Below, piece after piece: positions 1,021-30,344 of a DNA stretch of 64,000 nt. Under the pieces are notes generated by a model, which saw nothing but the letters and a program-made list of their open reading frames with translations, searched no databases and was not told the DNA's origin. The position numbers were made by a program, and so were the translations under genes. The stretch comes from an uncultured delta proteobacterium. Lineage in GTDB: Bacteria > Desulfobacterota > WTBG01. How positions within the stretch are numbered: position 1 is the first letter of the stretch; every line of letters begins with the position of its first letter. The DNA lies in NCBI GenBank assembly GCA_963751515.1, contig CAVVUR010000016.1, positions 12,086 through 76,085 of the forward strand, given 5' to 3'.

Positions 1021-2145
1021 TTACTCTCCCACCAGTTCCTTGGGCGGTTTAAATTCCGGCCAGTCATATGAGACACCCGAGAGCCATTCAAAGGTCTTGC
1101 CCCCGTCAATGGTTTTAAATACCGCCCCTGACTTCCCAACCACCCAGCCCACAGTTTCATTCACGAAAGCAACCGAGGTAAGCCAGCCCTTGGTGTGAAT
1201 GGCATCATCATTGTTGGTCCAGGTGTTTCCGCCGTCGCTGGACATGATGTAGGCACCGCGGTTACCCACCGCCCAGCACTTGTCTCCTACCATGGCGATG
1301 GAAAAGAGCGAGTTGGTGGAGGCGCTGTCAATTTTTTTCCACTCCTTGCCGCCATCGTCTGTTTTAAGCAGGGTGCCGTCAACACCTAAAATGAAGCCCC
1401 GCTGCCTGTCGGCAAAACGGATATCAAAGAGGGTCAGCTTCGGCAGCTCCCATTCATTCTCAGCCGTCTTCGGCGCCAAAGCCTCACAGGGACGGATTTC
1501 CCAGTTCTTGCCGCCATCCATGGTGTGATAGATGGAACCGAACTCCCCGACCAGCCACCCTTCATTGGCATCATGAAAGAATACCCCGTTGTAAATCACC
1601 TCCGCCGCAAAGACATTCTCATCGGTGCTCTGCTGTATGGTTTGGGGCTCCCAGGTCTTTCCCCCGTCAGCGGTATGGATGAGGGTCATCACATCGCCCG
1701 CCGCCCAGCCGTTGTTGCTGTCAGGAAAGTGGACGGTAAACAGATGCCTTTTGGTGCCGCTTTGCTGACGTTCCCAGGTCTTTCCCCCGTCCGAAGTATG
1801 TATCACGTTGCCCAGAATGCCCACTGCCCAGCCGTTCTGCCGGTCGGGGAAGCTGATATCGCAGATAAGCTCTCCCGACAGGCCGGTATTCTGAACCGTC
1901 CAGAAGTCCTTTTTGCTGTTTTCATACCTGATCTGGCTGCCCTGGCCGGTAGTGCCCAGATAGCTGTAGTCACCGGCTATGAGGATGTTGTCTTCATCAA
2001 ACGCGACCACCTTGGTAAGATTTTCCCCGACAATGGAAGGTATGTGAGGAACCTTAAAGGTTGACTTCTTCTGCTTGCAGCCCAGGGGTGAAGCAATCAA
2101 AGCCGCACTGATTACCATAATACATAGTTTATACGTGTTCACCAT
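1021..2145 (-). CDS. Ycf48/BNR-like beta-propeller lipoprotein
   Basis: The ORF 1021..2199 was trimmed to the ATG at 2145, which has a GGAGGA RBS 6 nt upstream. A lipoprotein signal (...ALIASPLGC) is present. Repeated 'S/T-DGGKTW' BNR/Ycf48 motifs occur (TSDGGKTWE, TADGGKTWE, TMDGGKNWE, TDDGGKEWK, SSDGGNTW, TIDGGKTF). It lies directly upstream of the RND gene. Confidence 0.7.
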   Translation of the reverse strand: MVNTYKLCIMVISAALIASPLGCKQKKSTFKVPHIPSIVGENLTKVVAFDEDNILIAGDYSYLGTTGQGSQIRYENSKKDFWTVQNTGLSGELICDISFPDRQNGWAVGILGNVIHTSDGGKTWERQQSGTKRHLFTVHFPDSNNGWAAGDVMTLIHTADGGKTWEPQTIQQSTDENVFAAEVIYNGVFFHDANEGWLVGEFGSIYHTMDGGKNWEIRPCEALAPKTAENEWELPKLTLFDIRFADRQRGFILGVDGTLLKTDDGGKEWKKIDSASTNSLFSIAMVGDKCWAVGNRGAYIMSSDGGNTWTNNDDAIHTKGWLTSVAFVNETVGWVVGKSGAVFKTIDGGKTFEWLSGVSYDWPEFKPPKELVGE

Positions 2146-2462
2146 GCCCGATCCTCCACATACATAACGCGTGAGTTTGGAATGCTTCCTTGCATGCATT
2201 TATAAATGAAGCAGAATTATCACTACCCATAATTGCTGTCAATGATAATTTGCCTGCGCGAATCATTTTTAACAAAAAAAATGCCACCGCTGCATCAACC
2301 ATCACTTGCAGAAGCCTCCTGCAACTGATGACCATGGACGATGGATTGAAATAAGCATTATTCATGCTATGGCTTCTGTATGAAAGACGCTTCAGATTTC
2401 AGGTATCTTATTGCCTTTCACCCGTGACATGTGAGTATCCTGCATCGTGTATGTGTAACTCG

Positions 2463-4175
2463 CTACTTCCTCTCCACCGGAGGCATTTTGTAATGGGCGC
2501 GCAGCCCGTTGATGCCGTCAATCATCTCCTGCGGCATGGCCTTCATTTCTTCCTCGCTGAACACCTGCCTGCCGGGCGCGCAAATGCTGCCGGGATCAAA
2601 AATCCTTCTCAGCTTTCTGAAGAGCAGGTGCACATTGGGCCCGTGTTCCGGAAAAAAAGTGGTAAGCGGTTCAATGGCCACGCCTATTCCAATGGCAGGG
2701 TATTTCTGCGAGACGAAATCAGCCACCGCGGCAACGGTGAGACCCCGCGCCCGGTTGAGCTTCTCCGGGTCAAGCGGATCAGGATACACATCCGCCTCCG
2801 ACAGCCAGTGCCTGCTTCCCCGTTCGATGGCGTAAAGAAACGGCGTGTCATCGATGCCGCCGCGGTCGGTGATGAAGGTTTCGCCCATGGCATTAATGGT
2901 GCGCCCCCAGATTTCCCTTGTTTTATAGGCGGTGTCCTTGAGCAATCCACCGGGAACGATGGATCCCCCGTAAAAAAAGCGGTTCATCCTGAAGCCGGTC
3001 ACGTGCCTGATGCAGTCCAGGTTCCAGGGCGCAAGTGCGTACAGCACATCCCCCTTGTATTCCGGGGTGAGGAAGGTGGCCTTGTGCTCCGCCATGATCT
3101 CGCGAAACACCTTCTCCTCGTACTCCATCTGCGCCTCAGAGGTAACGCCGTAGAGGATCACATAGAGGTTGAACGGGGGAAAGAATTTGCTGGTAACCCT
3201 ATCCATGGTCATGGCCTGGGTCTGGGAGCAGTAGTATGCGTTGTACACCCCGGTGGCATTGAGCCCCATACCGATGCCCGACTGGGCAACCGCGTGGAGC
3301 GCCCTGACCTCGGAATCGTAATCGGGAAATTCAACCCAGAGGAGCTTTACCCGGTCAGGAGGGGGCGCGGTGTCGTAGCGGGGCTCGTGATAGTCGGGAA
3401 TGGAGGGGCGGCCGGCGGGCGGTTCAGGCAGCTCGACACCCCCCGTCCAGGAATGAAGCTTGACTTTTATTTCGGTGATGATGCCGGTCGTGCCCGCTCC
3501 GCCTCTCACCAGGCTCAGCAGGTCCGGGCCGGGCCCGTATTCCCAGAGACAGTTGGCGCCTGAAACGGTGTCCGACCCGGTTATCAGGATATCGCCTGTA
3601 GGAAGCACCACCTTAATGCTCACGATGTTCCTGGTGAGCGTTCCGTACTTGAGATCGGTCTGCCAGATGCCGGCGAATGCCGACTGGGAGGATAATTTGC
3701 AGAGGGTGGTGGCGAGGGGTGTTCCTCCGTTCCAGAGACCCCGCTTCATCGCTTCCGCCTGCAGCTGTCCGTAGTCCCCATAAGCCTCCAGGGTGGCGGT
3801 GAGATTTTCCTCGTCTATATGCACGCGGTTCATCCTGCTCACGTGAACACAAATAGTGGGAAGCGGTGTGGTCGGCCCGTTGAAGGCGATCATCCCGTTG
3901 GTAAAGGGAATGACCTGAACCCCGAAGCGGTTGGCGATGCGCATGATCGCCTGCACCTCTTCGGTCGATCCCGGCAGGACAATGCATGCGGGGATCATCG
4001 TGGCGTCCCGCTGGTGCTTTCTCAAAACCCCGCCGGTATCCACCGAAAAGCGGCTGTAGGTTTCAATAACCGCCCGGTCTTCCGAAATCCACTCCGGGCC
4101 CACCACATCCTGCAGCGCCTGGAAGACATCCCGTGAAACCTTGTTGGGAATTACCTTTGCTTTGGGCTCTGACAT
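2463..4175 (-). CDS. FAD-binding oxidoreductase, VAO/PCMH (FAD_binding_4) family, long form (570 aa)
   Basis: The N-terminal FAD-binding region reads ...PACIVLPGSTEEVQAIMRIANRFGVQVIPFTNG...VHVSRMNRV. The GlcD-like C-terminal motif FDPGSICAPGRQV is present. It is a paralogue of 5962..7683. Confidence 0.8.
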   Translation of the reverse strand: MSEPKAKVIPNKVSRDVFQALQDVVGPEWISEDRAVIETYSRFSVDTGGVLRKHQRDATMIPACIVLPGSTEEVQAIMRIANRFGVQVIPFTNGMIAFNGPTTPLPTICVHVSRMNRVHIDEENLTATLEAYGDYGQLQAEAMKRGLWNGGTPLATTLCKLSSQSAFAGIWQTDLKYGTLTRNIVSIKVVLPTGDILITGSDTVSGANCLWEYGPGPDLLSLVRGGAGTTGIITEIKVKLHSWTGGVELPEPPAGRPSIPDYHEPRYDTAPPPDRVKLLWVEFPDYDSEVRALHAVAQSGIGMGLNATGVYNAYYCSQTQAMTMDRVTSKFFPPFNLYVILYGVTSEAQMEYEEKVFREIMAEHKATFLTPEYKGDVLYALAPWNLDCIRHVTGFRMNRFFYGGSIVPGGLLKDTAYKTREIWGRTINAMGETFITDRGGIDDTPFLYAIERGSRHWLSEADVYPDPLDPEKLNRARGLTVAAVADFVSQKYPAIGIGVAIEPLTTFFPEHGPNVHLLFRKLRRIFDPGSICAPGRQVFSEEEMKAMPQEMIDGINGLRAHYKMPPVERK

Positions 4176-21563: not shown

Positions 21564-23102
21564 TTACTTCCGCGAAAATCCTAATTTCTCAATCAGCGAT
21601 CCCTGCATGAAACTTTCCCGCAGGCCTGCAATGATCTTCGTTAGCTCAGGCGAGGCTTCCCGCGCAAATAATGCAAGCAGCTGATCAGCGTGCGCACGCG
21701 TACCGCTATCGAGGCCGGCCCGTTCTCCCCTGAGCCGGGACTGTATCACCGGGATCGCTTCTTTTGCCAGGCTGTACGCTGCTACCCTCACCCGCGGGTT
21801 GCAGAAGCAGATCACCAGCGCTTCAATGGCGTGGGGTGAATAATAGAGATCGATCAACTGTCTCCCCTCAGGAGTCGCGGCGAGCACCTCGTCCCGAACC
21901 CTCCGCAAGGCACCCATTTCAGCCCCGGTCAACGGCAGCGCAAGGGAAGTGAAGCAGGGAAATGGCGGCGCGGCCGCCGCGGTGGTAAAGCTCCAGATGT
22001 CACTGTAGACGGGTGGACCTTCGACGCATTCGTCGACCGCCCTGACCTTCCAGTAATAGGTTGTGTCGGGGTTGAGCTGGCCGCCTCCCCGGTTTGGATC
22101 ACAGTAAGGAACGCTCAGATTGTCACAGACGAGCGCGCTGAAGCTCTCGTTTTCAACCAGCGACCGGTCCGAGGAAAAATAGACGATTTGATGAATGATG
22201 CCGTCCACCTGCTCCTGCGACTCCCCTTCCCACCACTTGAGGGTTGTAAAAAGGGACTGGTCGAAAGCACCGTCTTCCGGAGCGGGGGAATTCGGGTACG
22301 GAGGCTGCATGTCCCGCTGCAGCACCACCGTCACCGCCGATTCAGCCGGCGGCTCGGCGTTGGAAGAGGTAACCTTTATGGAGGCGCTGTAAAGCCCGGT
22401 GCATCCCTCCTGCTTGGAGCGGTCTATTCTCACTTTTATGGCCTCGCTGGTCCCGCTGGATAGCGTACCGCTCAGGCTGCTGCTGCCGTTGATGGTAAAC
22501 CAGTCCGCGCTTGACGGAACAGCGGCCTTCCAAGCCATTTCTCCCTGGCCGTTGTTCTTAACCAGGAATGTTTCCTCATCCACCAATGAACCGAAATCCA
22601 GCTCATTGGGCTCCACCCTGAGAATGTTGTATTCGGCAATGGTCATGGTGGTGTTGACCTCGAGCTGATCCAGCACCAGCAGTGGATCACAGCTTTGCGT
22701 CAGCTCATCATACGCGTACTGTTGCACGATGAATTTTCCGGCATGAATGCCGACCGGATCCCTTCCCTCGTTCTTCAGCTGCGGGACAATGCACAGTCCG
22801 CAGGCGCCCAGCGATACCTGCGCATACCTCTGATCTCCTGCCGTGAGATCAATCATCCCCGCCGCGTTGCCTTCAACGCTGAGCCAGTCATCATCCGCCA
22901 CCACTCCCCAGCAGAGCACCCCGTCACCGCAATTGGAAATGGTAATTTTTTGAACTTTTATTTTAGGAGAATAGGGTTCCACCTCTCCGAAGTCGACCGT
23001 CTCTGGTATGATCTGGAGCTGCGGCTGAGCATAAGTGGATGAAACAAAAAGCATTGCAAATATTACTGCAGGGAACACTCCGCGCACATGGCTTTTCAGC
23101 AC
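21564..23102 (-). CDS. Secreted multidomain protein (two BACON/Ig-like modules, FN3-like module, unassigned C-terminal domain)
   Basis: The signal peptide is …AMLFVSSTYA. Two modules follow the pattern '…DFG…ITISN.G.G.L.W…DDWLSV…' The FN3-like part reads …LNPDTTYYWKVRAVD…WSFTT. The domain calls are by eye. Confidence 0.5.
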   Translation of the reverse strand: MLKSHVRGVFPAVIFAMLFVSSTYAQPQLQIIPETVDFGEVEPYSPKIKVQKITISNCGDGVLCWGVVADDDWLSVEGNAAGMIDLTAGDQRYAQVSLGACGLCIVPQLKNEGRDPVGIHAGKFIVQQYAYDELTQSCDPLLVLDQLEVNTTMTIAEYNILRVEPNELDFGSLVDEETFLVKNNGQGEMAWKAAVPSSADWFTINGSSSLSGTLSSGTSEAIKVRIDRSKQEGCTGLYSASIKVTSSNAEPPAESAVTVVLQRDMQPPYPNSPAPEDGAFDQSLFTTLKWWEGESQEQVDGIIHQIVYFSSDRSLVENESFSALVCDNLSVPYCDPNRGGGQLNPDTTYYWKVRAVDECVEGPPVYSDIWSFTTAAAAPPFPCFTSLALPLTGAEMGALRRVRDEVLAATPEGRQLIDLYYSPHAIEALVICFCNPRVRVAAYSLAKEAIPVIQSRLRGERAGLDSGTRAHADQLLALFAREASPELTKIIAGLRESFMQGSLIEKLGFSRK

Positions 23103-23429: not shown

Positions 23430-24350
23430 ATGAAAATTTTGATTACCGGCGGGGCGGGTTTTATCGCCTCCCACGTTGCCGATCTGCTGATAGACAACGG
23501 TCATGCCATAGTCATCGTCGACGACCTTTCCAACGGCAGGAGGGAAAATATAAATCCCCATGCCGCCTTCTACCATGCAAGCATTCTGGACCAGACGCTT
23601 GCCGACATCTTCAGAAAAGAAAAACCGGAAGTGGTGATCCACCACGCGGCCCAGATCTCGGTCAGGAACTCCGTGCAGGACCCCCTGAACGACATGGAAA
23701 TAAATATCAGGGGATCTCTGCTGCTGCTCGAGCAGTGTAAGAACTGCCGGGTGCAAAAATTTATTTTTTCATCCACCGGCGGGGCGCTGTACGGGGAACA
23801 GGACTATTTCCCCGCGGATGAAAATCACCCCACCCGTCCGCTCAGCCCCTACGCCATCGCCAAGCTGAGCGTGGAGAAATACCTTTTCTTTTATCATACC
23901 ACCCACCGTCTTCCCTATACCGTTCTCAGGTATGCCAATGTGTATGGCCCCCGGCAGGATCCCTTCGGCGAAGCCGGGGTTATAGCCATCTTCAGCCAGA
24001 AAATGCTTAAGGGCGATCAGCCGGTCATTAACGGTGACGGTAACCAGACCAGGGATTTTGTTTACGTGGGTGATGTTGCCCGCGCCAATCTGCTGGCGCT
24101 CAATCACCAGGTAACCGGTGAAATAAATATCGGCACCGGCATAGAAACATCCATCAATACCATTTTCCATGAAATCAGATCATTACTGGCACCCGCTACG
24201 CCGGCAGTGCACGGGCCGGCCATGCCCGGCGAACAGCTGCGCAGCGTTCTCTCCTGCAAGAAGGCCCATGCTGTTTTAGGGTGGGAACCAACGGTGCCGC
24301 TCACCGAAGGGCTCAGGCACACGGTTGACTTTTTCAGGAACCAGCAATAA
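23430..24350 (+). CDS. NAD-dependent epimerase/dehydratase (UDP-glucose 4-epimerase-like SDR)
   Basis: An AAAGGAGG RBS is present. The N-terminus is MKILITGGAGFIASHV, and the YxxxK motif is present (SPYAIAKLS). Confidence 0.85.
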   Translation: MKILITGGAGFIASHVADLLIDNGHAIVIVDDLSNGRRENINPHAAFYHASILDQTLADIFRKEKPEVVIHHAAQISVRNSVQDPLNDMEINIRGSLLLLEQCKNCRVQKFIFSSTGGALYGEQDYFPADENHPTRPLSPYAIAKLSVEKYLFFYHTTHRLPYTVLRYANVYGPRQDPFGEAGVIAIFSQKMLKGDQPVINGDGNQTRDFVYVGDVARANLLALNHQVTGEINIGTGIETSINTIFHEIRSLLAPATPAVHGPAMPGEQLRSVLSCKKAHAVLGWEPTVPLTEGLRHTVDFFRNQQ

Positions 24351-24444
24351 GCCCCTATCAGAATTCTCCCTTCACTATTCTCCTGCACGTCTTTGATGCA
24401 AAAATAGATTTGGGGTGCCCACTCAGCCTGAACCACTCCGGCAG

Positions 24445-24530
24445 GGAGAGGGATCGATTGGTTTCCTTCTTTTCCTAAAGGGAAGAGAGAATCAATTTGT
24501 ATTCCCTCGCTCCCCGGGGAGAGAGGGATT
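24445..24530. repeat. GGGAGAGGG-type palindromic (REP-like) element cluster
   Basis: gggagagggatcgattg (24445-24461) pairs imperfectly with caatttgtattccctcgctccc (24493-24514). This is followed by the near-perfect palindrome tccctcgctcccc|ggggagagaggga (24502-24530). A related hairpin lies at 28134..28158. Confidence 0.4.
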
Positions 24531-24989
24531 TGAGAAAGGAGACGCGTGTGGCATGGGGACATTCGTGCAAACCATGGGTGGTGGACTGAAATGGGGATAA
24601 CCGGAAGGATATCCTGCTGGGCAATGGCAGCCTTATGCTTTCCCTCAACGAGGGAAGTGACCGTCATCCCCTCTTCGGCCCTGCGCCCTCTGATGGCAGG
24701 AGGAAAGGAAATCCAGGTTGATGGCACATCTGCGCCCTGTGTTGTCGACTGGAATGCTGACGGGCAGTTGGATGTGCTGGTGGGTACCGGCAACGGGCAG
24801 ATAAACGTCTATTACGCAGCTACCGGAGAGGAAGAACCGGCGATCACCCACAGTGAAACCATTGAGCTCAACGGACAGTCGATGATGCTGGAAGGTGCTG
24901 TATTCCCCTTCCCCGTGGACTGGAATGAGGACGGAAGCACTGAACTGCTCATCGGAACCGGAGAGGGGGAAATGTATCTCGCCCTCTAG
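24482..24989 (+). pseudogene. FG-GAP/VCBS-repeat protein remnant (5'-truncated, in-frame TGA, frameshift)
   Basis: Frame 2 reads …GHSCKPWVVD*NGDNRKDILLGNGSLMLSLNEGSDRHPLFGPAP. The TGA (24587-24589) sits where the two downstream repeats have Trp (VVDWNADGQLDVLVGTGNG, VDWNEDGSTELLIGTGEG). Those repeats are in a different frame (ORF 24546..24989). Confidence 0.5.
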
Positions 24990-25054
24990 TACACAGAAAT
25001 CAGGGAACCACCGTACACATAATCAAATCACTTCTCCCGCAACCTTATTATCAT

Positions 25055-25094
25055 AAAAAATAGCCCCCAAGCCTGTTGTTGGCCAAGGGGCTAT
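25055..25094 (-). terminator. Rho-independent terminator of the TSP3/dockerin gene
   Basis: The stem atagcccc…ggggctat has an inner gcc/ggc stem. On the minus strand it is followed by a U6 run (the complement of A 25055-25060). Confidence 0.55.
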
Positions 25095-25108
25095 TCCCAT
25101 GGTTACGT

Positions 25109-27625
25109 TCATGGACATAGTGGACAGTCAGTCCGGTTAAATTCGTCCTTCATCATCACCAGGTCAGCAAGGTCGACACTGTTATCGTAGTTGCAATCAG
25201 CATTACAGGGGTTCGTTGCACAATCCGTTCTTAAGAAGTCCCGCTTCATTATGACGAGATCAGTAAGATTAACCTTGGTATCACTGTTACAGTCTGCATA
25301 ACATTCACAAGCATCACCACAGTTGTTGCCAGCCGGGGGATAGGAGTCTAATTGTTCTGGGTTGGGTATGTTAGGGCAGTTGTCACAGACAACATCAACA
25401 CCGTCACCATCCGGGTCTATAGTATCCAGGTCACAAATGTCTCCTGTTCCGTTATTATCACAGTCAATTTGAAGTGGATTATAGTCATTAGGACAGTTAT
25501 CACAGCAATCCCCTAAACCATCGTCATCTACATCATATTGATCCGGATTGGGTGTGGCGGGGCAATTATCACAAACATCACCCACGTCATCTTCATCGGC
25601 ATCAGTTTGGTCTGGGTTAGCAATATTTAAGCAGTTGTCCACCTGATTATAGACACCGTCGCAGTCATTATCGCAATTGACCCCTTCCTCGCAATTGGTG
25701 AACACGTCGCAGGTGTTGCCGACTCCATCGCAATCTCCATCTTCCTGATCCGGATTATGGTGAACGGGACAGTTATCGCAGGCATTGCCGTGGGAATCGC
25801 TGTCACTATCCTCCTGCCCGGGATTGGGGGCTGCAGGACAATTATCCACAATATCCGGTAGCCCATCGCCATCACTATCAGCTCCGCAATAAGCATCCCA
25901 GCCCCCATCTGCAGATGAATAATCAGAATAGTGAGGCACCGCACAGGAATAACCATAGGACCATGAGCCATCTTGACACACATCTTCAGAAACCCCACCA
26001 AAAATACAAATGGAGTCATAGTCTTTATAACATGAATTGATATAGTCTTCGGGTTCACCCCCCATCATTAAAACAAATGCCTGGTGCGCTGCTTGTTGCG
26101 TTCTTGACAGTTCTTCCGTTGGTGACCATCCTGCTTTATGAGGCGGAGGGCATGACGAACAGGTAGGTGGGTAGGTAAATTCAGTACATTCTGTACATGA
26201 GGCGCTGTCAGTCCACCATTTAATAATGCCGTTGTAGCAGGCATCACCTATACCGTCCGCATCACTATCTTCCTGGTTCGGGTTAACAACGGCAGGGCAG
26301 TTGTCATTGACATCCAGGATTCCATCATTGTCGTCATCATCATCACAGGCATCCCCGATCCCATCCCCATCCGTATCTCTCTGGTCAGGGTTAGTTGCAG
26401 CGGGACAATTGTCACACAAGTCTCCCAGCCCATCCTGATCCCCATTTTCCTGATACGGGTTAAAAAGGTAAGGACAGTTATCTATCTCACCGCACACCCC
26501 ATCTCCATCACTATCATTTTCGGGATCAATGAGACATTGGTCACACGCATCACCTATGCCATCGCCATCTAAATCCTCCTGATTGGGGTTATAGGTATTT
26601 GGACAGTTATCGCAGCCATCGGCTATAATATCTTCGTCCACATCCGATTGGTCCGGATTAAACACATAAGGGCAATTGTCATCCTGATCAAGAATACCGT
26701 CATTATCCCAATCCCCATCATAATGAAGGATGATGCCATCTTCACCCACGGCAAAAACATCCGTCCCTGAACTGCCCCCGATCCCATAGAGACCATTAAC
26801 GGTTCCACTGCTCATGCTAGACCAGATGTTCCCATCATAGTGAATGATGGTGCCACCTTCTCCCACCGCATAGACATCCGTCCCTGAACTGCCCCAGACA
26901 TCACTGAGAAATCTAGTTGTAGCGTCATCCATCTCCAACCAGATGTTCCCATCATAATGGAGGATGGTGTCACCCACGGCAAAGGCATCTGTTACCGAAC
27001 TGCCCCAGATACTGGGAACATACTTTGCGGTATCGTCTACCGACCAAGTACTCCCATCATAGTGTCGCATAGTTCCATATGCACCGACGGCATGGACATT
27101 TGTTCCCGAGCTGCCCCAGATATCATAAAGAACACGCGTCGTTTCACTATTCATAGCCGACCAGGTATTACCATCATAGTGAAGGATAGTGCCTTCGTCT
27201 CCCACAGCAAAGACATCCGTTCCCGAACTTCCCCAGACAGCATGGAGTCTCCCAGCTGTGCCGATGGTCATCTCAGACCATGTGTTTCCATCATAATGAA
27301 GGATGATGCCACCAAAATAACCACCCACCGCATAAACATCGGTTGGCGAGCTCCCCCAGACATCCAAAAGATACGCTGTGGTACCGATACCGATGGTCAT
27401 CTCAGACCATGTGTTTCCATCATAATGAAGGATGATGCCATTACCACCCAATTCGAACCCCACTGCGAACACATCAGTCCCAGAGCTGCCCCAGATTGCA
27501 TAAAGGTCATTTCCTTGCGGCAGCTGATTCTGCCTTTCCCAGCCCGCATATGAAGGTCTGGTCATTGCAAGCAGTAAAAATGAAATGAATATCAATGCCA
27601 TGATTGCACTGTAAAATCCTTTCAT
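25109..27625 (-). CDS. Large secreted protein: beta-propeller repeats + ~11 thrombospondin type-3 (DNCP…NPDQ.D.D.DG.GD.CD) calcium-binding repeats + C-terminal dockerin-like pair
   Basis: The signal peptide is [27 protein letters not shown]. Six to seven ~45-aa repeats follow the pattern '[13 protein letters not shown]…[12 protein letters not shown]'. I counted 11 DNC(P/L) motifs in the translation. The tail [20 protein letters not shown]…[20 protein letters not shown] is a dockerin type-I duplicated EF-hand. Confidence 0.8.
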
Positions 27626-28133
27626 TTCATCCTCCTTCTCAAATAAAAATACCCGCCCTCTCAGACATGCTCCCTCTGAGATAAGGCGGGGTTGTTTTCC
27701 TATAATGCGATCTTCTCACAAAATCCCCCTATCGGATATCTATCATGTTATAATCTAACCATAAAAGGCCCTTTTATTCAACAACAAAAAAAGCAGCCCC
27801 AAGCCATTAATGATCAACGGGTGATTTCGCATTACATCCAGGTTCTGTGCTACAATACTTCACCTCATAAGGTTGCTCATAATTGTTATTCCGATTGCAA
27901 TTTTGTATACAATTCGCTCTTATCCTCCATCAGGCACCCTTAATACAAATCTGCAATGTAGTAAAAGCACCTGCAACGTATCTGGTACAGGGATTGCATT
28001 TCATTATAACAGGATAAAAAAAGTATTGGGGTCATTCCGTTCAACATGTATTTCCTGTTGTTGTCACCCGGAACGGAGTGACAGGTCTCCTGGATTGATG
28101 CGATAATAAGATCGCGGATACCCCATCATCCTA

Positions 28134-28158
28134 CCCCTCTCCCGCGGCGGGGAGAGGG
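28134..28158. repeat. GGGAGAGGG-type palindromic hairpin
   Basis: The sequence ccctctccc-gcggcg-gggagaggg forms a 9-bp perfect stem. It has the same arm sequence as the element at 24445..24530. Confidence 0.4.
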
Positions 28159-28277
28159 AAATGCATCAGCACATATGGATTTGGTGTGTAATGCAATTGG
28201 GGGGAGAAAACTGCACGGCTAAGGGATATTCTGAAGATTGCTGTTAAGGTGTGTGTATCGTAAGGAGGGGCATTACC

Positions 28278-28556
28278 ATGGAACTAACTACCGATATCGT
28301 ACTCGAAATCCCGCTCTGGCACATGGCAGTGCTGCTGATCATTATGCTGGCCTGCCTGGGGTTTAAAAAGTATGCTGCGGGATTGATAGCGGCAATCCTT
28401 TTTGTCATGTACTGGGGATACGTGTACAACTATGACAAATTCGTCCAGCAGTCATTTCAGTTCAATTACGCGGCATTGTTCTTTTTCCTCATAGGAGCAT
28501 GCAATGCCCTCATCGTAATCGCTCTATCCATTTGCGCGTTTTCCATGGATGACTGA
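28278..28556 (+). CDS. Small integral membrane protein (92 aa, 3 predicted TM helices)
   Basis: An AGGAGG RBS lies 7 nt upstream of the ATG at 28278. The hydrophobic segments are …WHMAVLLIIMLACLGF…, …GLIAAILFVMYWGYV… and …AALFFFLIGACNALIVIALSICAF…. Confidence 0.5.
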   Translation: MELTTDIVLEIPLWHMAVLLIIMLACLGFKKYAAGLIAAILFVMYWGYVYNYDKFVQQSFQFNYAALFFFLIGACNALIVIALSICAFSMDD

Positions 28557-28583: not shown

Positions 28584-30086
28584 TCACAGCCGCAAATTGA
28601 ATTCACTGATCAACCGGGAGAGATAGGTCCGCTGAATCCCCATGATATCGGCAGCCTTCTTCCGGTTGCCGTGGGTGTAGGCCAGGGTCTTGGTCAAAAA
28701 TTCCTTCTTGAAAATATCCTGCGCCTCTTTCAGGGTCATGCCCACCTCGACACCGCTCTGCAATCCTGAATCCGTTTTCCCGATGGGCAGATCGGCAACC
28801 GCGATCTTTTCCCCGTCACCCATCACCACCGCCCGCTCGATGGCATTCTCCAGCTCGCGCACATTCCCCGGCCAGTCGTAGCTTAAAATTGCCTTGATGG
28901 CCTCCGATGAGAACTCCCGTTTCCGCAGGCCCCGGTCACTGGTATATTTGTGCAGAAAGTATTTGGCCAGCACGCCTATATCTTCCCTGCGCTCCCGGAG
29001 CGGCGGTATCTTTAACTGGATCACGTTGAGCCGGTAAAAAAGGTCCTCGCGGAACTTGCCTTCCCTGGTCAACTTATTGAGCTGCTTGTTGGTCGCGGAT
29101 ATAACCCTGACATCAACGGTTATGGGCACTGAGCTGCCGATGCGGTTGAAGGTGCCTTCCTGGAGGACCCGCAGCAGCTTCACCTGCATGGTCTGGCTCA
29201 TCTCTCCGATTTCATCGAGGAATATGGTGCCGCCGTCGGCGGTCTCAAACAGCCCGATCTTCCTGTAGAGCGCGCCGGTGAAGGAACCCTTTTCATGGCC
29301 GAAGAGCTCGGCCTCCAGAAGCGTTTCGGGAAGGGCCCCGCAGTTGACAATCACGAAGGGCTGGTCCCGGCGCTGCCCGGACCGGTGGATCAGGCGCGCC
29401 AGCAGCTCCTTGCCGGTCCCGCTCTCTCCTTCAATCAAGACCGTGGTCTTGGAGTTGGCCACTTTGAGGGCGTCGGCGATCACCTTCTGTATCTCCTTGC
29501 TCTCGCCTACAATCTGGTATTTCATCTCCAGCTGATTTTTCAATCCTGTATTTTCATCAATGACCTTGCGGTATTCCTTTGCCTTGACGATGGCCAGCGC
29601 CGCCAGGTTGGCAAAGGCCTCCAGCATTTCCATGTCCTCTCGCCGGATGGGATTGCCGTCCTCGCGGTCGATAATTTCCACCACGCCGATCACTTCCTCG
29701 CCGATCTTCATGGGCACGCAGGCAATGGATTTGGTGTCAAAGCCGATCGATTCGCTTATCTTCTTATCCCACAGGTCATCCGTGCTGACATCCTCCACCA
29801 GCAGCGGCTTGCCCGTTTTTGCCACGTATCCCGCGATGCCTTCACCCAGGCCGACTTCAAATTTCTTCACGTCATCGCTCTTTTCTCCGGTGGCGACCTG
29901 GAAGTAGAGCGTATCGGTTTTTTTATCAAGCAGCAGCAGCGAGCTGGCCCGGGCTTTCATCACCTCGGTGGCGGACTCAATGATCATTCCCAGCAGGTGG
30001 TCCAGATCAAAAACCGAGGTCACCAGTGAGGAAATATTGGAAATAAATTGCAGCCTGGGATCGTTAAACTTGCTCTTCCCTTTCAT
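28584..30086 (-). CDS. Sigma-54-dependent transcriptional activator (GAF sensor - AAA+ - Fis-type HTH)
   Basis: The motifs are Walker A GESGTGKE, the GAFTGA-type loop (EKGSFTGA) and C-terminal …[21 protein letters not shown]. The ATG at 30086 has an AAGGGGA RBS. Confidence 0.85.
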
Positions 30087-30344
30087 CAGTTCCCCTTGGC
30101 ACGCTTCCACAGCATGAGGTCAGGACTTACACTGCAGCCGTTTGAGTAAATCAGTAACCGGGTAAGGCGGCGTATGCATGGTCGGAAAATGGTATTATAT
30201 TGTGCACTCACTGTTATCGACAGCATGCGCTTAATACTTTAATGCTTTAGGGGTGTGCACTTTATTACAACCGGGACGGGAATTTACAAAGGGATGTGAC
30301 GAAGAACGATCCCTTTATATGCAGTAATGTATGTAAAGGGTAGC

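Follow-up and report, generated by a model that had tools for sequence, protein, structure and literature searches.

The stretch analysed here, a window of 64,000 nucleotides, belongs to a metagenome-assembled genome (MAG) of an uncultured, sulfate-reducer-like Thermodesulfobacteriota bacterium (18 contigs, 2.96 Mb, 53.1% GC, 74% complete). Our subject is a reverse-strand gene within it that encodes a modular protein (P0001), together with the system of proteins to which its C-terminal tail links it. The open reading frame (ORF) runs uninterrupted through 838 codons and a stop at window positions 25109–27625. A signal-like N-terminus is followed by a β-propeller, by two blocks of thrombospondin type-3 (TSP3) repeats that enclose a cysteine-rich spacer, and by a dockerin. 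The features of the locus are given below in the direction of translation; all but the last lie on the reverse strand.

27631..27637, reverse strand: Shine-Dalgarno sequence AAGGAGG, 5 nucleotides 5′ of the ATG (sequence reading)
25109..27625, reverse strand: whole coding sequence, P0001 (ORF read)
27545..27625, reverse strand: Sec-type signal peptide, residues 1–27, made up of MKGFYS, a 15-residue hydrophobic core and TRPSYA, with GW following (read by eye from the sequence)
26711..27544, reverse strand: seven-bladed β-propeller, residues 28–305 (seven WGSS/HYDG blades; AlphaFold2 model; Ycf48 fold match)
26234..26710, reverse strand: TSP3 block 1, six units, residues 306–464 (Pfam; motif count; alignment to COMP, 3fby)
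25856..26233, reverse strand: cysteine-rich spacer domain with nine cysteines, residues 465–590, between the TSP3 blocks
25301..25855, reverse strand: TSP3 block 2, six units, residues 591–775 (Pfam; motif count)
25112..25300, reverse strand: type-I-like dockerin, residues 776–838, ending in CPLCP (Pfam; CelS dockerin alignment)
25052..25101, reverse strand: intrinsic-terminator hairpin and U-tract 3′ of the stop codon (ΔG −27.4 kcal/mol, z −4.24 against shuffled sequences)
24990..28263, no strand: segment present here and absent from the syntenic site of the congeners (comparison with the congeneric genomes G001, G002 and G003)

The N-terminus resembles a Sec signal, an assignment that comes from reading the sequence and not from a predictor, and the same reading of residues 1–27 revealed no lipobox cysteine. 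Seven copies of the motif WGSSxxDVFAVG...ILHYDGxxW follow. When residues 28–312 were modeled with AlphaFold2 (AF2) from an alignment of 19 homologous segments, a confident propeller was obtained (predicted local distance difference test (pLDDT) score 92.7; predicted template modeling score 0.91), whose 28 strands make up seven four-stranded blades. The 12 best fold matches in the PDB are all chains of Ycf48/HCF136 (2xbg, 5ojr; E 3e-13, template modeling (TM) score ∼0.77), itself a propeller of seven blades, and WD40 propellers come next. Identity to Ycf48 is only 18–19%, however, and the domain here is an exported head, not a photosystem assembly factor. No sequence match of the propeller to Ycf48/PSII_BNR (Pfam PF14870) was found, and membership of the Ycf48 family was rejected on this ground. 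No Pfam family exceeded its cut-off in the first 300 residues of the protein; the sole propeller-type match was to Rax2 (E 0.047; 13.5 bits, cut-off 28.8). Relatives of the module, at 45–60% identity, are found in thousands of large multidomain proteins, where they are accompanied by domains of the Ig, PKD, FN3, peptidase, FGE-sulfatase and SLH types and even by cohesins. The named relatives belong to Deltaproteobacteria/Desulfobacterales, Planctomycetota, Acidobacteria, Gemmatimonadetes, Dehalococcoidales, Thioploca MAGs and Desulfonema limicola. Within the genome the closest paralogue of the propeller (C5:121-2349, 742 residues) is 55% identical. The propeller is a generic exported head module, and none of the 48 cysteines of the protein lies within it.

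The central region contains 12 TSP3 units in two blocks of six (residues 316–463 and 594–770), all of which fit the pattern D(N/Q)C(P/L)x3NPxQxDxDxDGxGDxC; 11 carry DNC(P/L) and one carries DQCL, and the calcium-ligand positions of the units are intact. The score against Pfam TSP_3 (PF02412) was 151.3 bits over nine stretches (cut-off 25), and the region aligned with human COMP (3fby, E 1.2e-52) and with thrombospondin-2 (E 2.6e-45). Metazoan thrombospondin and COMP (3fby, 1yo8, 1ux6) share with the protein the units DNCPxxxNPDQxDxDxDGxGDxCD, with the same spacing of cysteine and aspartate. Unlike theirs, the array here is interrupted by an unrelated cysteine-rich domain of 126 residues, for which we found no Pfam match, no PDB sequence match and no paralogue within the genome. 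Classification of the whole protein as a thrombospondin was rejected, since the PDB matches are confined to the type-3 region and the C-terminus is a dockerin instead of an L-lectin-like domain.

Pfam Dockerin_1 (PF00404) matched residues 776–829 with 32.5 bits against a cut-off of 22.9, and with 38.7 bits when the whole genome was scanned. The tail is built from two 22-residue segments, each a calcium loop followed by a helix, with aspartate or asparagine at loop positions 1, 3, 5, 9 and 12. It can be aligned gap-free with the CelS dockerin of C. thermocellum (1daq/2mte; family profile E 3.5e-9), and like the clostridial type I dockerins of that kind it is C-terminal, with segments of the same length and spacing. 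The protein belongs to both the TSP_3 and the Dockerin_1 families. The initial annotation, made from the letters alone, had described a secreted 838-residue fusion of propeller, TSP3 repeats and dockerin, and Pfam, PDB sequence matches and the structure model back all three domain calls. Its count of 11 DNC(P/L) motifs in two blocks around a cysteine-rich spacer was exact, with the DQCL unit to be added; its six to seven blades proved to be seven in the predicted structure; its comparison with the metazoan type-3 kind agrees with the match to COMP; and its duplicated EF-hand tail agrees with the Pfam score and the gap-free alignment to CelS.

The tail is not peculiar to this protein. Scanning the genome with the Pfam dockerin gave 53 matches in ∼48 ORFs, nearly all of them within 10 residues of the C-terminus. 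In 38 of the ORFs the protein ends in a full two-segment cassette, and these tails are 46–79% identical to the one studied here; outside the tail, the secreted proteins that bear it are unrelated to each other. The consensus of the cassette is ...DNCPxxxNPxQxDxxPPxGNGCGDACEC(Y/H)ADCNxDxKV(D/N)LxDLVIMKxEFxRTDCxxNPCxADCNYDNKV(D/N)LSDLVMMKxEFxR(T/S)DCPxCP-stop, which corresponds to one TSP3 unit joined to a dockerin bracketed by cysteines. The last TSP3 unit of block 2 is thus part of the conserved cassette. From the CEC motif onward there are eight cysteines, six of them within residues 776–838, and every calcium-ligand and cysteine position of the cassette is conserved relative to the paralogues. 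The cysteines (in DCN at loop position 2, in RTDC after each helix, in the NPC linker and in the terminal CPxCP) set the cassette apart from CelS-type dockerins, as do the TSP3 unit that always precedes it, the Thermodesulfobacteriota host and a cargo that is not carbohydrate-active. The protein is one of ∼40 plug-bearing proteins in the genome and not a lone oddity; it is ordinary within its system, and the system is the object of interest.

What the cassette is attached to was surveyed with Pfam in 24 proteins, comprising 20 that carry the cassette and four that carry the cohesin-like module described below. The cargo domains include a peptidase M14, two alpha/beta-hydrolases (one chlorophyllase-like), rhodanese, LRR, FG-GAP, metallophosphoesterase and BNR domains, an MtrC/MtrF-like multihaem cytochrome and several propellers like the present one; an Lcl_C domain came from one of the four cohesin-like proteins. 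No carbohydrate-active enzyme domain was found among the 24, so that, unlike in a cellulosome, the dockerins of this set are not borne mainly by carbohydrate-active enzymes. One cassette protein of 870 residues (L091, G000:C15:54626-57238) has CarboxypepD_reg, MtrC/MtrF-like and cytochrome c7-type multihaem domains ahead of its dockerin cassette and would be a dockerin-tagged extracellular cytochrome.

The initial annotation had noted that no cohesin-like gene was visible in the window. This is so: the window contains no match, however weak, to Pfam Cohesin (PF00963), and its contig carries no copy of the divergent module described here. A genome-wide search with the same family gave best matches of 18.1 and 15.7 bits, both below the cut-off of 24.1 and both in a shared N-terminal module of ∼165 residues (PLSYE(I/F)D...DGYSCPPxDKLFG...GGPFDxSLSGF...). 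By phmmer and profile searches, 14 copies of this module were located in at least 10 ORFs, all at other loci and several close to dockerin genes; one of the ORFs is C10:147592-148467. An AF2 model of the module (pLDDT 84.9) has the nine-stranded jelly-roll fold of cohesins, and the first 29 PDB matches returned by Foldseek are all cohesins (among them 5lxv, 5nrm, 6kgf, 2jh2 and 1g1k; E down to 4.8e-7, TM score up to 0.78). Some of the proteins contain two modules spaced by a Cys/Pro/Thr heptad linker, and others join a cohesin-like module to the dockerin cassette, as adaptor scaffoldins do. Two of the cohesin-like proteins (G000:C2:101798-104860 and C13:212444-213604) share a C-terminal domain of ∼110 residues without annotation (…LPPSWYQSRW…VTVTTGSE…INLLPFPLDQE), a candidate anchoring module of putative scaffoldins; the first of the two also has a long Cys/Pro/Thr heptad linker of the TCPE type. 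For annotation, the lesson is that reliance on Pfam cut-offs can lead to a mistaken call of "no cohesin".

Both modules are very rare. Among 31 related genomes, the expansion of the dockerin is seen only here (45 matches against 0–3 elsewhere, with 1, 3 and 0 in the congeners), and so are the cohesin-like modules (14 matches against 0–1 elsewhere, with 0, 1 weak and 0 in the congeners); a sample of 400 further genomes of the phylum contains no cohesin-like module. When 1.84 billion representative proteins were scanned in full with HMMER, the module was matched only 98 times; four of the matches are this genome's own proteins, and in 23 of the 98 the dockerin cassette is present in the same polypeptide. 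In one of these proteins (P0123), an M4 peptidase is followed by a cohesin-like module and a TSP3 unit, and the dockerin that comes next shares 78% identity with the one studied here. The cassette itself was sought among 5.8 billion proteins in a word-limited search, which gave only 14 proteins of comparable length, including this genome's own; a multicopper oxidase and peptidases (M4, S8, C1) are among those from beyond this genome. When 185,579 species genomes were scanned by pattern, a method limited by its patterns, neither module gave a confirmed match. Two metagenome contigs (L093 and L094) carry the cassette, with no cohesin-like module within 15–17 kb. That two such rare modules keep company, both in genomes and in single polypeptides, is most simply explained if they form one system. 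The initial annotation had also spoken of an unknown docking partner, a statement that is true of the window but not of the genome, where the 14 cohesin-fold modules are probable partners; given these modules and the physical linkage of their family to the cassette in unrelated metagenomes, within 23 of 98 representatives, the docking partner is probably known.

We favor, with some confidence, the view that the protein is cargo of a non-cellulosomal cohesin–dockerin display system in which its tail would dock into the cohesin-like modules, as the sequence of the cassette and the predicted fold of the modules suggest. The modular protein would be exported by the Sec pathway and then cross the outer membrane; since the genome encodes two secretins, such an outer-membrane route is possible. 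The Ycf48-like propeller would serve as a ligand-binding head, engaging its ligand through the top face. The 12 TSP3 units and the small cysteine-rich domain between them would form a stalk stiffened by calcium and disulfides. At the far end, the cassette would plug in a calcium-dependent manner into the divergent cohesin-like modules, whose genes lie at other loci; some of these modules belong to multi-cohesin proteins or to adaptors with both a cohesin and a dockerin. In this way, the head would be displayed on a scaffold at the cell surface or in a matrix, beside proteases, hydrolases, LRR/FG-GAP binders and a multihaem cytochrome. The adhesin role that the initial annotation proposed is putative.

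Several observations weigh against docking of this kind. The genome has no cohesin of Pfam grade (the modules score 13.4–18.1 bits against 24.1), and a PDB search with a sequence profile of the module found no solved cohesin, so that the assignment of the modules as cohesins rests on their predicted fold. Neither the neighborhood of the gene studied here nor the contig of the window holds a cohesin-like gene. The organism is probably diderm, whereas the classical cohesin–dockerin systems are Gram-positive, and the protein may not leave the periplasm. In addition, the MAG is only 74% complete.

The absence of a Pfam-grade cohesin also lends weight to the main alternative, an orphan dockerin, which we consider unlikely. 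The cassette would then be a module for calcium- and disulfide-dependent folding, stability or self-association, or would bind a non-protein surface component such as polysaccharide or an S-layer, and the protein would act as an extracellular binder that is free or only loosely attached. According to Peer et al. (2009), as cited in PMC2930009, bacteria that are not cellulolytic commonly have dockerins but no cohesins. In the congeners, moreover, many proteins end in another dockerin-like tail (CDGDVDGSDAxxFKxxFGRS), and cohesin-like modules are lacking. An orphan dockerin does not, however, account for the co-occurrence of a cohesin-fold family with the cassette, which was found in this genome only among 431 sampled and extends to the same polypeptide in the 23 representatives described above. 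Furthermore, the tail retains the canonical two-segment geometry and the calcium ligands of a type I dockerin that binds cohesin.

Less likely again is that the protein is a calcium-dependent adhesin in the manner of thrombospondin or of MtsC, acting between cells or between cell and matrix through its TSP3 array and propeller, with the dockerin incidental. MtsC of Myxococcus xanthus (NCBIfam NF047638) is, like the present protein, secreted and rich in TSP3 repeats, and it is implicated in cell–cell cohesion. It is the best NCBIfam match (266.4 bits), the TSP3 region is very close to the repeats of COMP and thrombospondin-2, and relatives of the propeller occur in thousands of large surface proteins. 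The MtsC score nonetheless falls short of the equivalog cut-off of 350 bits and the model aligns to the TSP3 region, grounds on which identity with MtsC was rejected. The MYXO-CTERM sorting signal is absent and the protein ends in a dockerin; MtsC leaves both propeller and dockerin unexplained. The structural matches to thrombospondin and COMP likewise span the type-3 repeats only and lend no support to a lectin-like C-terminal domain. A TSP3 unit also belongs to the cassette when that cassette is carried by enzymes and cytochromes, which points to a role as linker or stalk.

How the gene came to its present site was examined in the three congeneric genomes. Its flanks are syntenic with all three at 84–92% nucleotide identity (81–85% for the upstream epimerase gene), and the extra segment at 24990–28263 comprises the gene, its terminator and ∼640 bp upstream. 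In place of window 24990–28291, G002 has 73 bp; 297 bp stand in place of 24354–28263 in G001, and 442 bp in place of 24347–28261 in G003. The 297 and 442 bp separate the epimerase gene from the genes for a small membrane protein and a sigma-54 activator. Only this species has the gene here, flanked by conserved housekeeping genes, and its presence at the site is lineage-specific. No transposase, flanking direct repeats or target duplication was found at the borders of the insertion. Palindromes resembling repetitive extragenic palindromes (REPs), of the type CCCTCTCCC...GGGAGAGGG, bracket the AT-shifted patch at window 24503–24528 and 28133–28160; the right-hand one has ∼15 similar copies across the genome and occurs in the congeners too. 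Adjoining the gene, at 24546–24989 on the forward strand, is a 147-residue FG-GAP_3 fragment (28.7 bits), which probably remains from a once larger gene. G002 has a piece of 75% identity that abuts the right flank across the 73-bp gap; the fragment is absent from G001 and G003. Two genes from the one studied here, at 21564–23102 on the reverse strand, is a gene for a 512-residue protein with a hydrophobic signal-like N-terminus and BACON_2 (50 bits) and Ig-like domains, which is kept in G001 and G003 and therefore lies outside the insertion.

As the initial annotation had remarked, the gene is more AT-rich than its neighbors: GC content at third codon positions (GC3) is 0.446, compared with 0.59–0.79 for the neighboring genes. 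Its GC is 0.480, against a mean of 0.541 for the ORFs of the genome; among 2176 long ORFs this value falls in the 12th percentile and its GC3 in the 5th. An amino acid bias (15.8% aspartate, 7.5% asparagine) as the cause of this AT-richness was ruled out, since the same residues encoded with genome-average codons would give a GC of 0.543 and a GC3 of 0.623 (z ∼ −1.8, 6.6th percentile). The deviation is real but moderate. It is also shared: the mean GC3 residual is −0.142 in the 48 dockerin-bearing ORFs and −0.003 in the others (Mann–Whitney p = 7e-17). AT-richness is a property of the class of ∼48 dockerin genes and not the signature of one transfer.

Low GC3 extends uniformly along the gene, yet residues 370–716, which span the last part of TSP3 block 1, the spacer and the greater part of block 2, share 76% identity, and 82% in nucleotides, with a protein of 797 residues encoded elsewhere in G001 (L053, G001:C1:189343-193383, ORF 1192–3585, reverse strand). 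This resident gene of a congener weakens the case for a single recent import from a foreign source. The G001 protein has another head, formed by a different propeller-type repeat of ∼40 residues (YNSLALDAEGKVHISYY...LKYATNKSGTW), and another tail, the cysteine-containing dockerin-like CDGDVDGSDAxxFKxxFGRS, which is present twice. Pfam Dockerin_1 has a single match in G001, and the tail region of the present protein matches many G001 proteins at ∼45–55% identity. Because its middle third is so close to a congener gene with a different head and tail, the protein looks like a recombinant mosaic in which head, stalk and plug have separate histories. Shuffling of modules within a pool of secreted-protein genes fits better than a single wholesale import. 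The horizontal acquisition proposed in the initial annotation thus stands in so far as the gene is specific to this lineage at its site; wholesale import from outside is not borne out, given the congener-like middle. The cohesin–dockerin package, for its part, looks to have been gained, or uniquely retained, by this species. That the gene is a passenger of recent capture, without function or in decay, within a variable patch of shifted AT content, or else a chimera of the MAG assembly, is very improbable: the adjoining FG-GAP fragment, the bracketing palindromes and the low GC3 would suit such an origin, but the frame of 838 codons is intact and equipped with a strong Shine-Dalgarno sequence, a signal peptide and a terminator, all calcium-ligand and cysteine positions match those of the paralogues, and chimeric binning is unlikely because both flanks, on the same contig, are syntenic with the congeners.

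The terminator hairpin (window 25055–25095) recurs at four other sites with 84–90% identity (G000:C8:30890-31045, C11:55234-55274 and C11:56830-56867), and the copies on C8 lie directly downstream of another dockerin gene, which suggests that dockerin genes may share the 3′ ends of their cassettes. A scan for sigma-70 promoters of the gene performed no better than shuffled sequence. A sigma-54 promoter was considered because of the activator gene nearby and was rejected, as no match exists on the strand of the gene and the one perfect match faces the opposite way. That motif, the only perfect −24/−12 match of the window (TGGTACAGGGATTGCA, 27983–27998, forward strand), lies within the inserted segment and faces a gene for a 91-residue membrane protein with a strong Shine-Dalgarno sequence (28281–28556, forward strand), which is convergent with the gene for a GAF-AAA+-HTH sigma-54 activator (28584–30110, reverse strand). 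The border of the insertion at ∼28263 is just 5′ of the Shine-Dalgarno sequence of the membrane-protein gene, and for this reason the insertion may have replaced the promoter of that gene.

The display system favored here has precedents in part. Cohesin and dockerin modules outside cellulosomes are known (Peer et al., 2009, FEMS Microbiol Lett 291:1, as cited in PMC2930009), and the amylosome-type system of Ruminococcus bromii uses them outside cellulose degradation (PMC4611034). Like those systems, the present one would extend the modules beyond cellulose degradation and includes adaptor proteins with both module types. It differs from them in its ∼40 dockerin and 14 cohesin-like modules confined to one species within its genus, in cohesins too divergent for Pfam, and in a cargo of multihaem cytochrome, peptidases, esterases and binding propellers. 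The combination of dockerin or EF-hand segments with bacterial TSP3 repeats has been described in the "dockerin-type" giant proteins of Omnitrophota, which were proposed to serve in attachment (bioRxiv 10.1101/2023.11.21.568195). Those proteins exceed 30,000 residues, have many internal repeats and are membrane-anchored, whereas the protein studied here has 838 residues, with a propeller as its head and just one dockerin cassette, at the C-terminus. TSP3 repeats in secreted bacterial proteins, dockerins outside cellulosomes and the TSP3–dockerin combination are thus already known. What is unusual is the cassette of a TSP3 unit and a cysteine-bracketed dockerin, its pairing with a rare and divergent cohesin family, and its species-specific expansion onto cargo other than carbohydrate-active enzymes.

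To our knowledge, cohesin–dockerin assembly is understood almost only in Gram-positive degraders of fiber. Our broader proposal, which is offered tentatively and which we hold less firmly than docking itself, is that a diderm anaerobe possesses a hitherto undescribed and globally rare "exoproteome display" system, in which the cysteine-bracketed dockerin–TSP3 cassette and the divergent cohesin family would have been gained as a package by a single species and the cassette then shuffled onto ∼40 unrelated proteins. If this is true, it would offer a clear natural example of a C-terminal cassette spread by domain shuffling within one genome, and its compact, disulfide-stapled dockerin variant and new cohesin family would be of use in protein engineering. 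For the organism, it would mean that an uncultured Thermodesulfobacteriota bacterium uses plug-and-socket logic to display binding heads, proteases, esterases and an MtrC-like cytochrome, with redox and hydrolytic functions organized on one extracellular scaffold.

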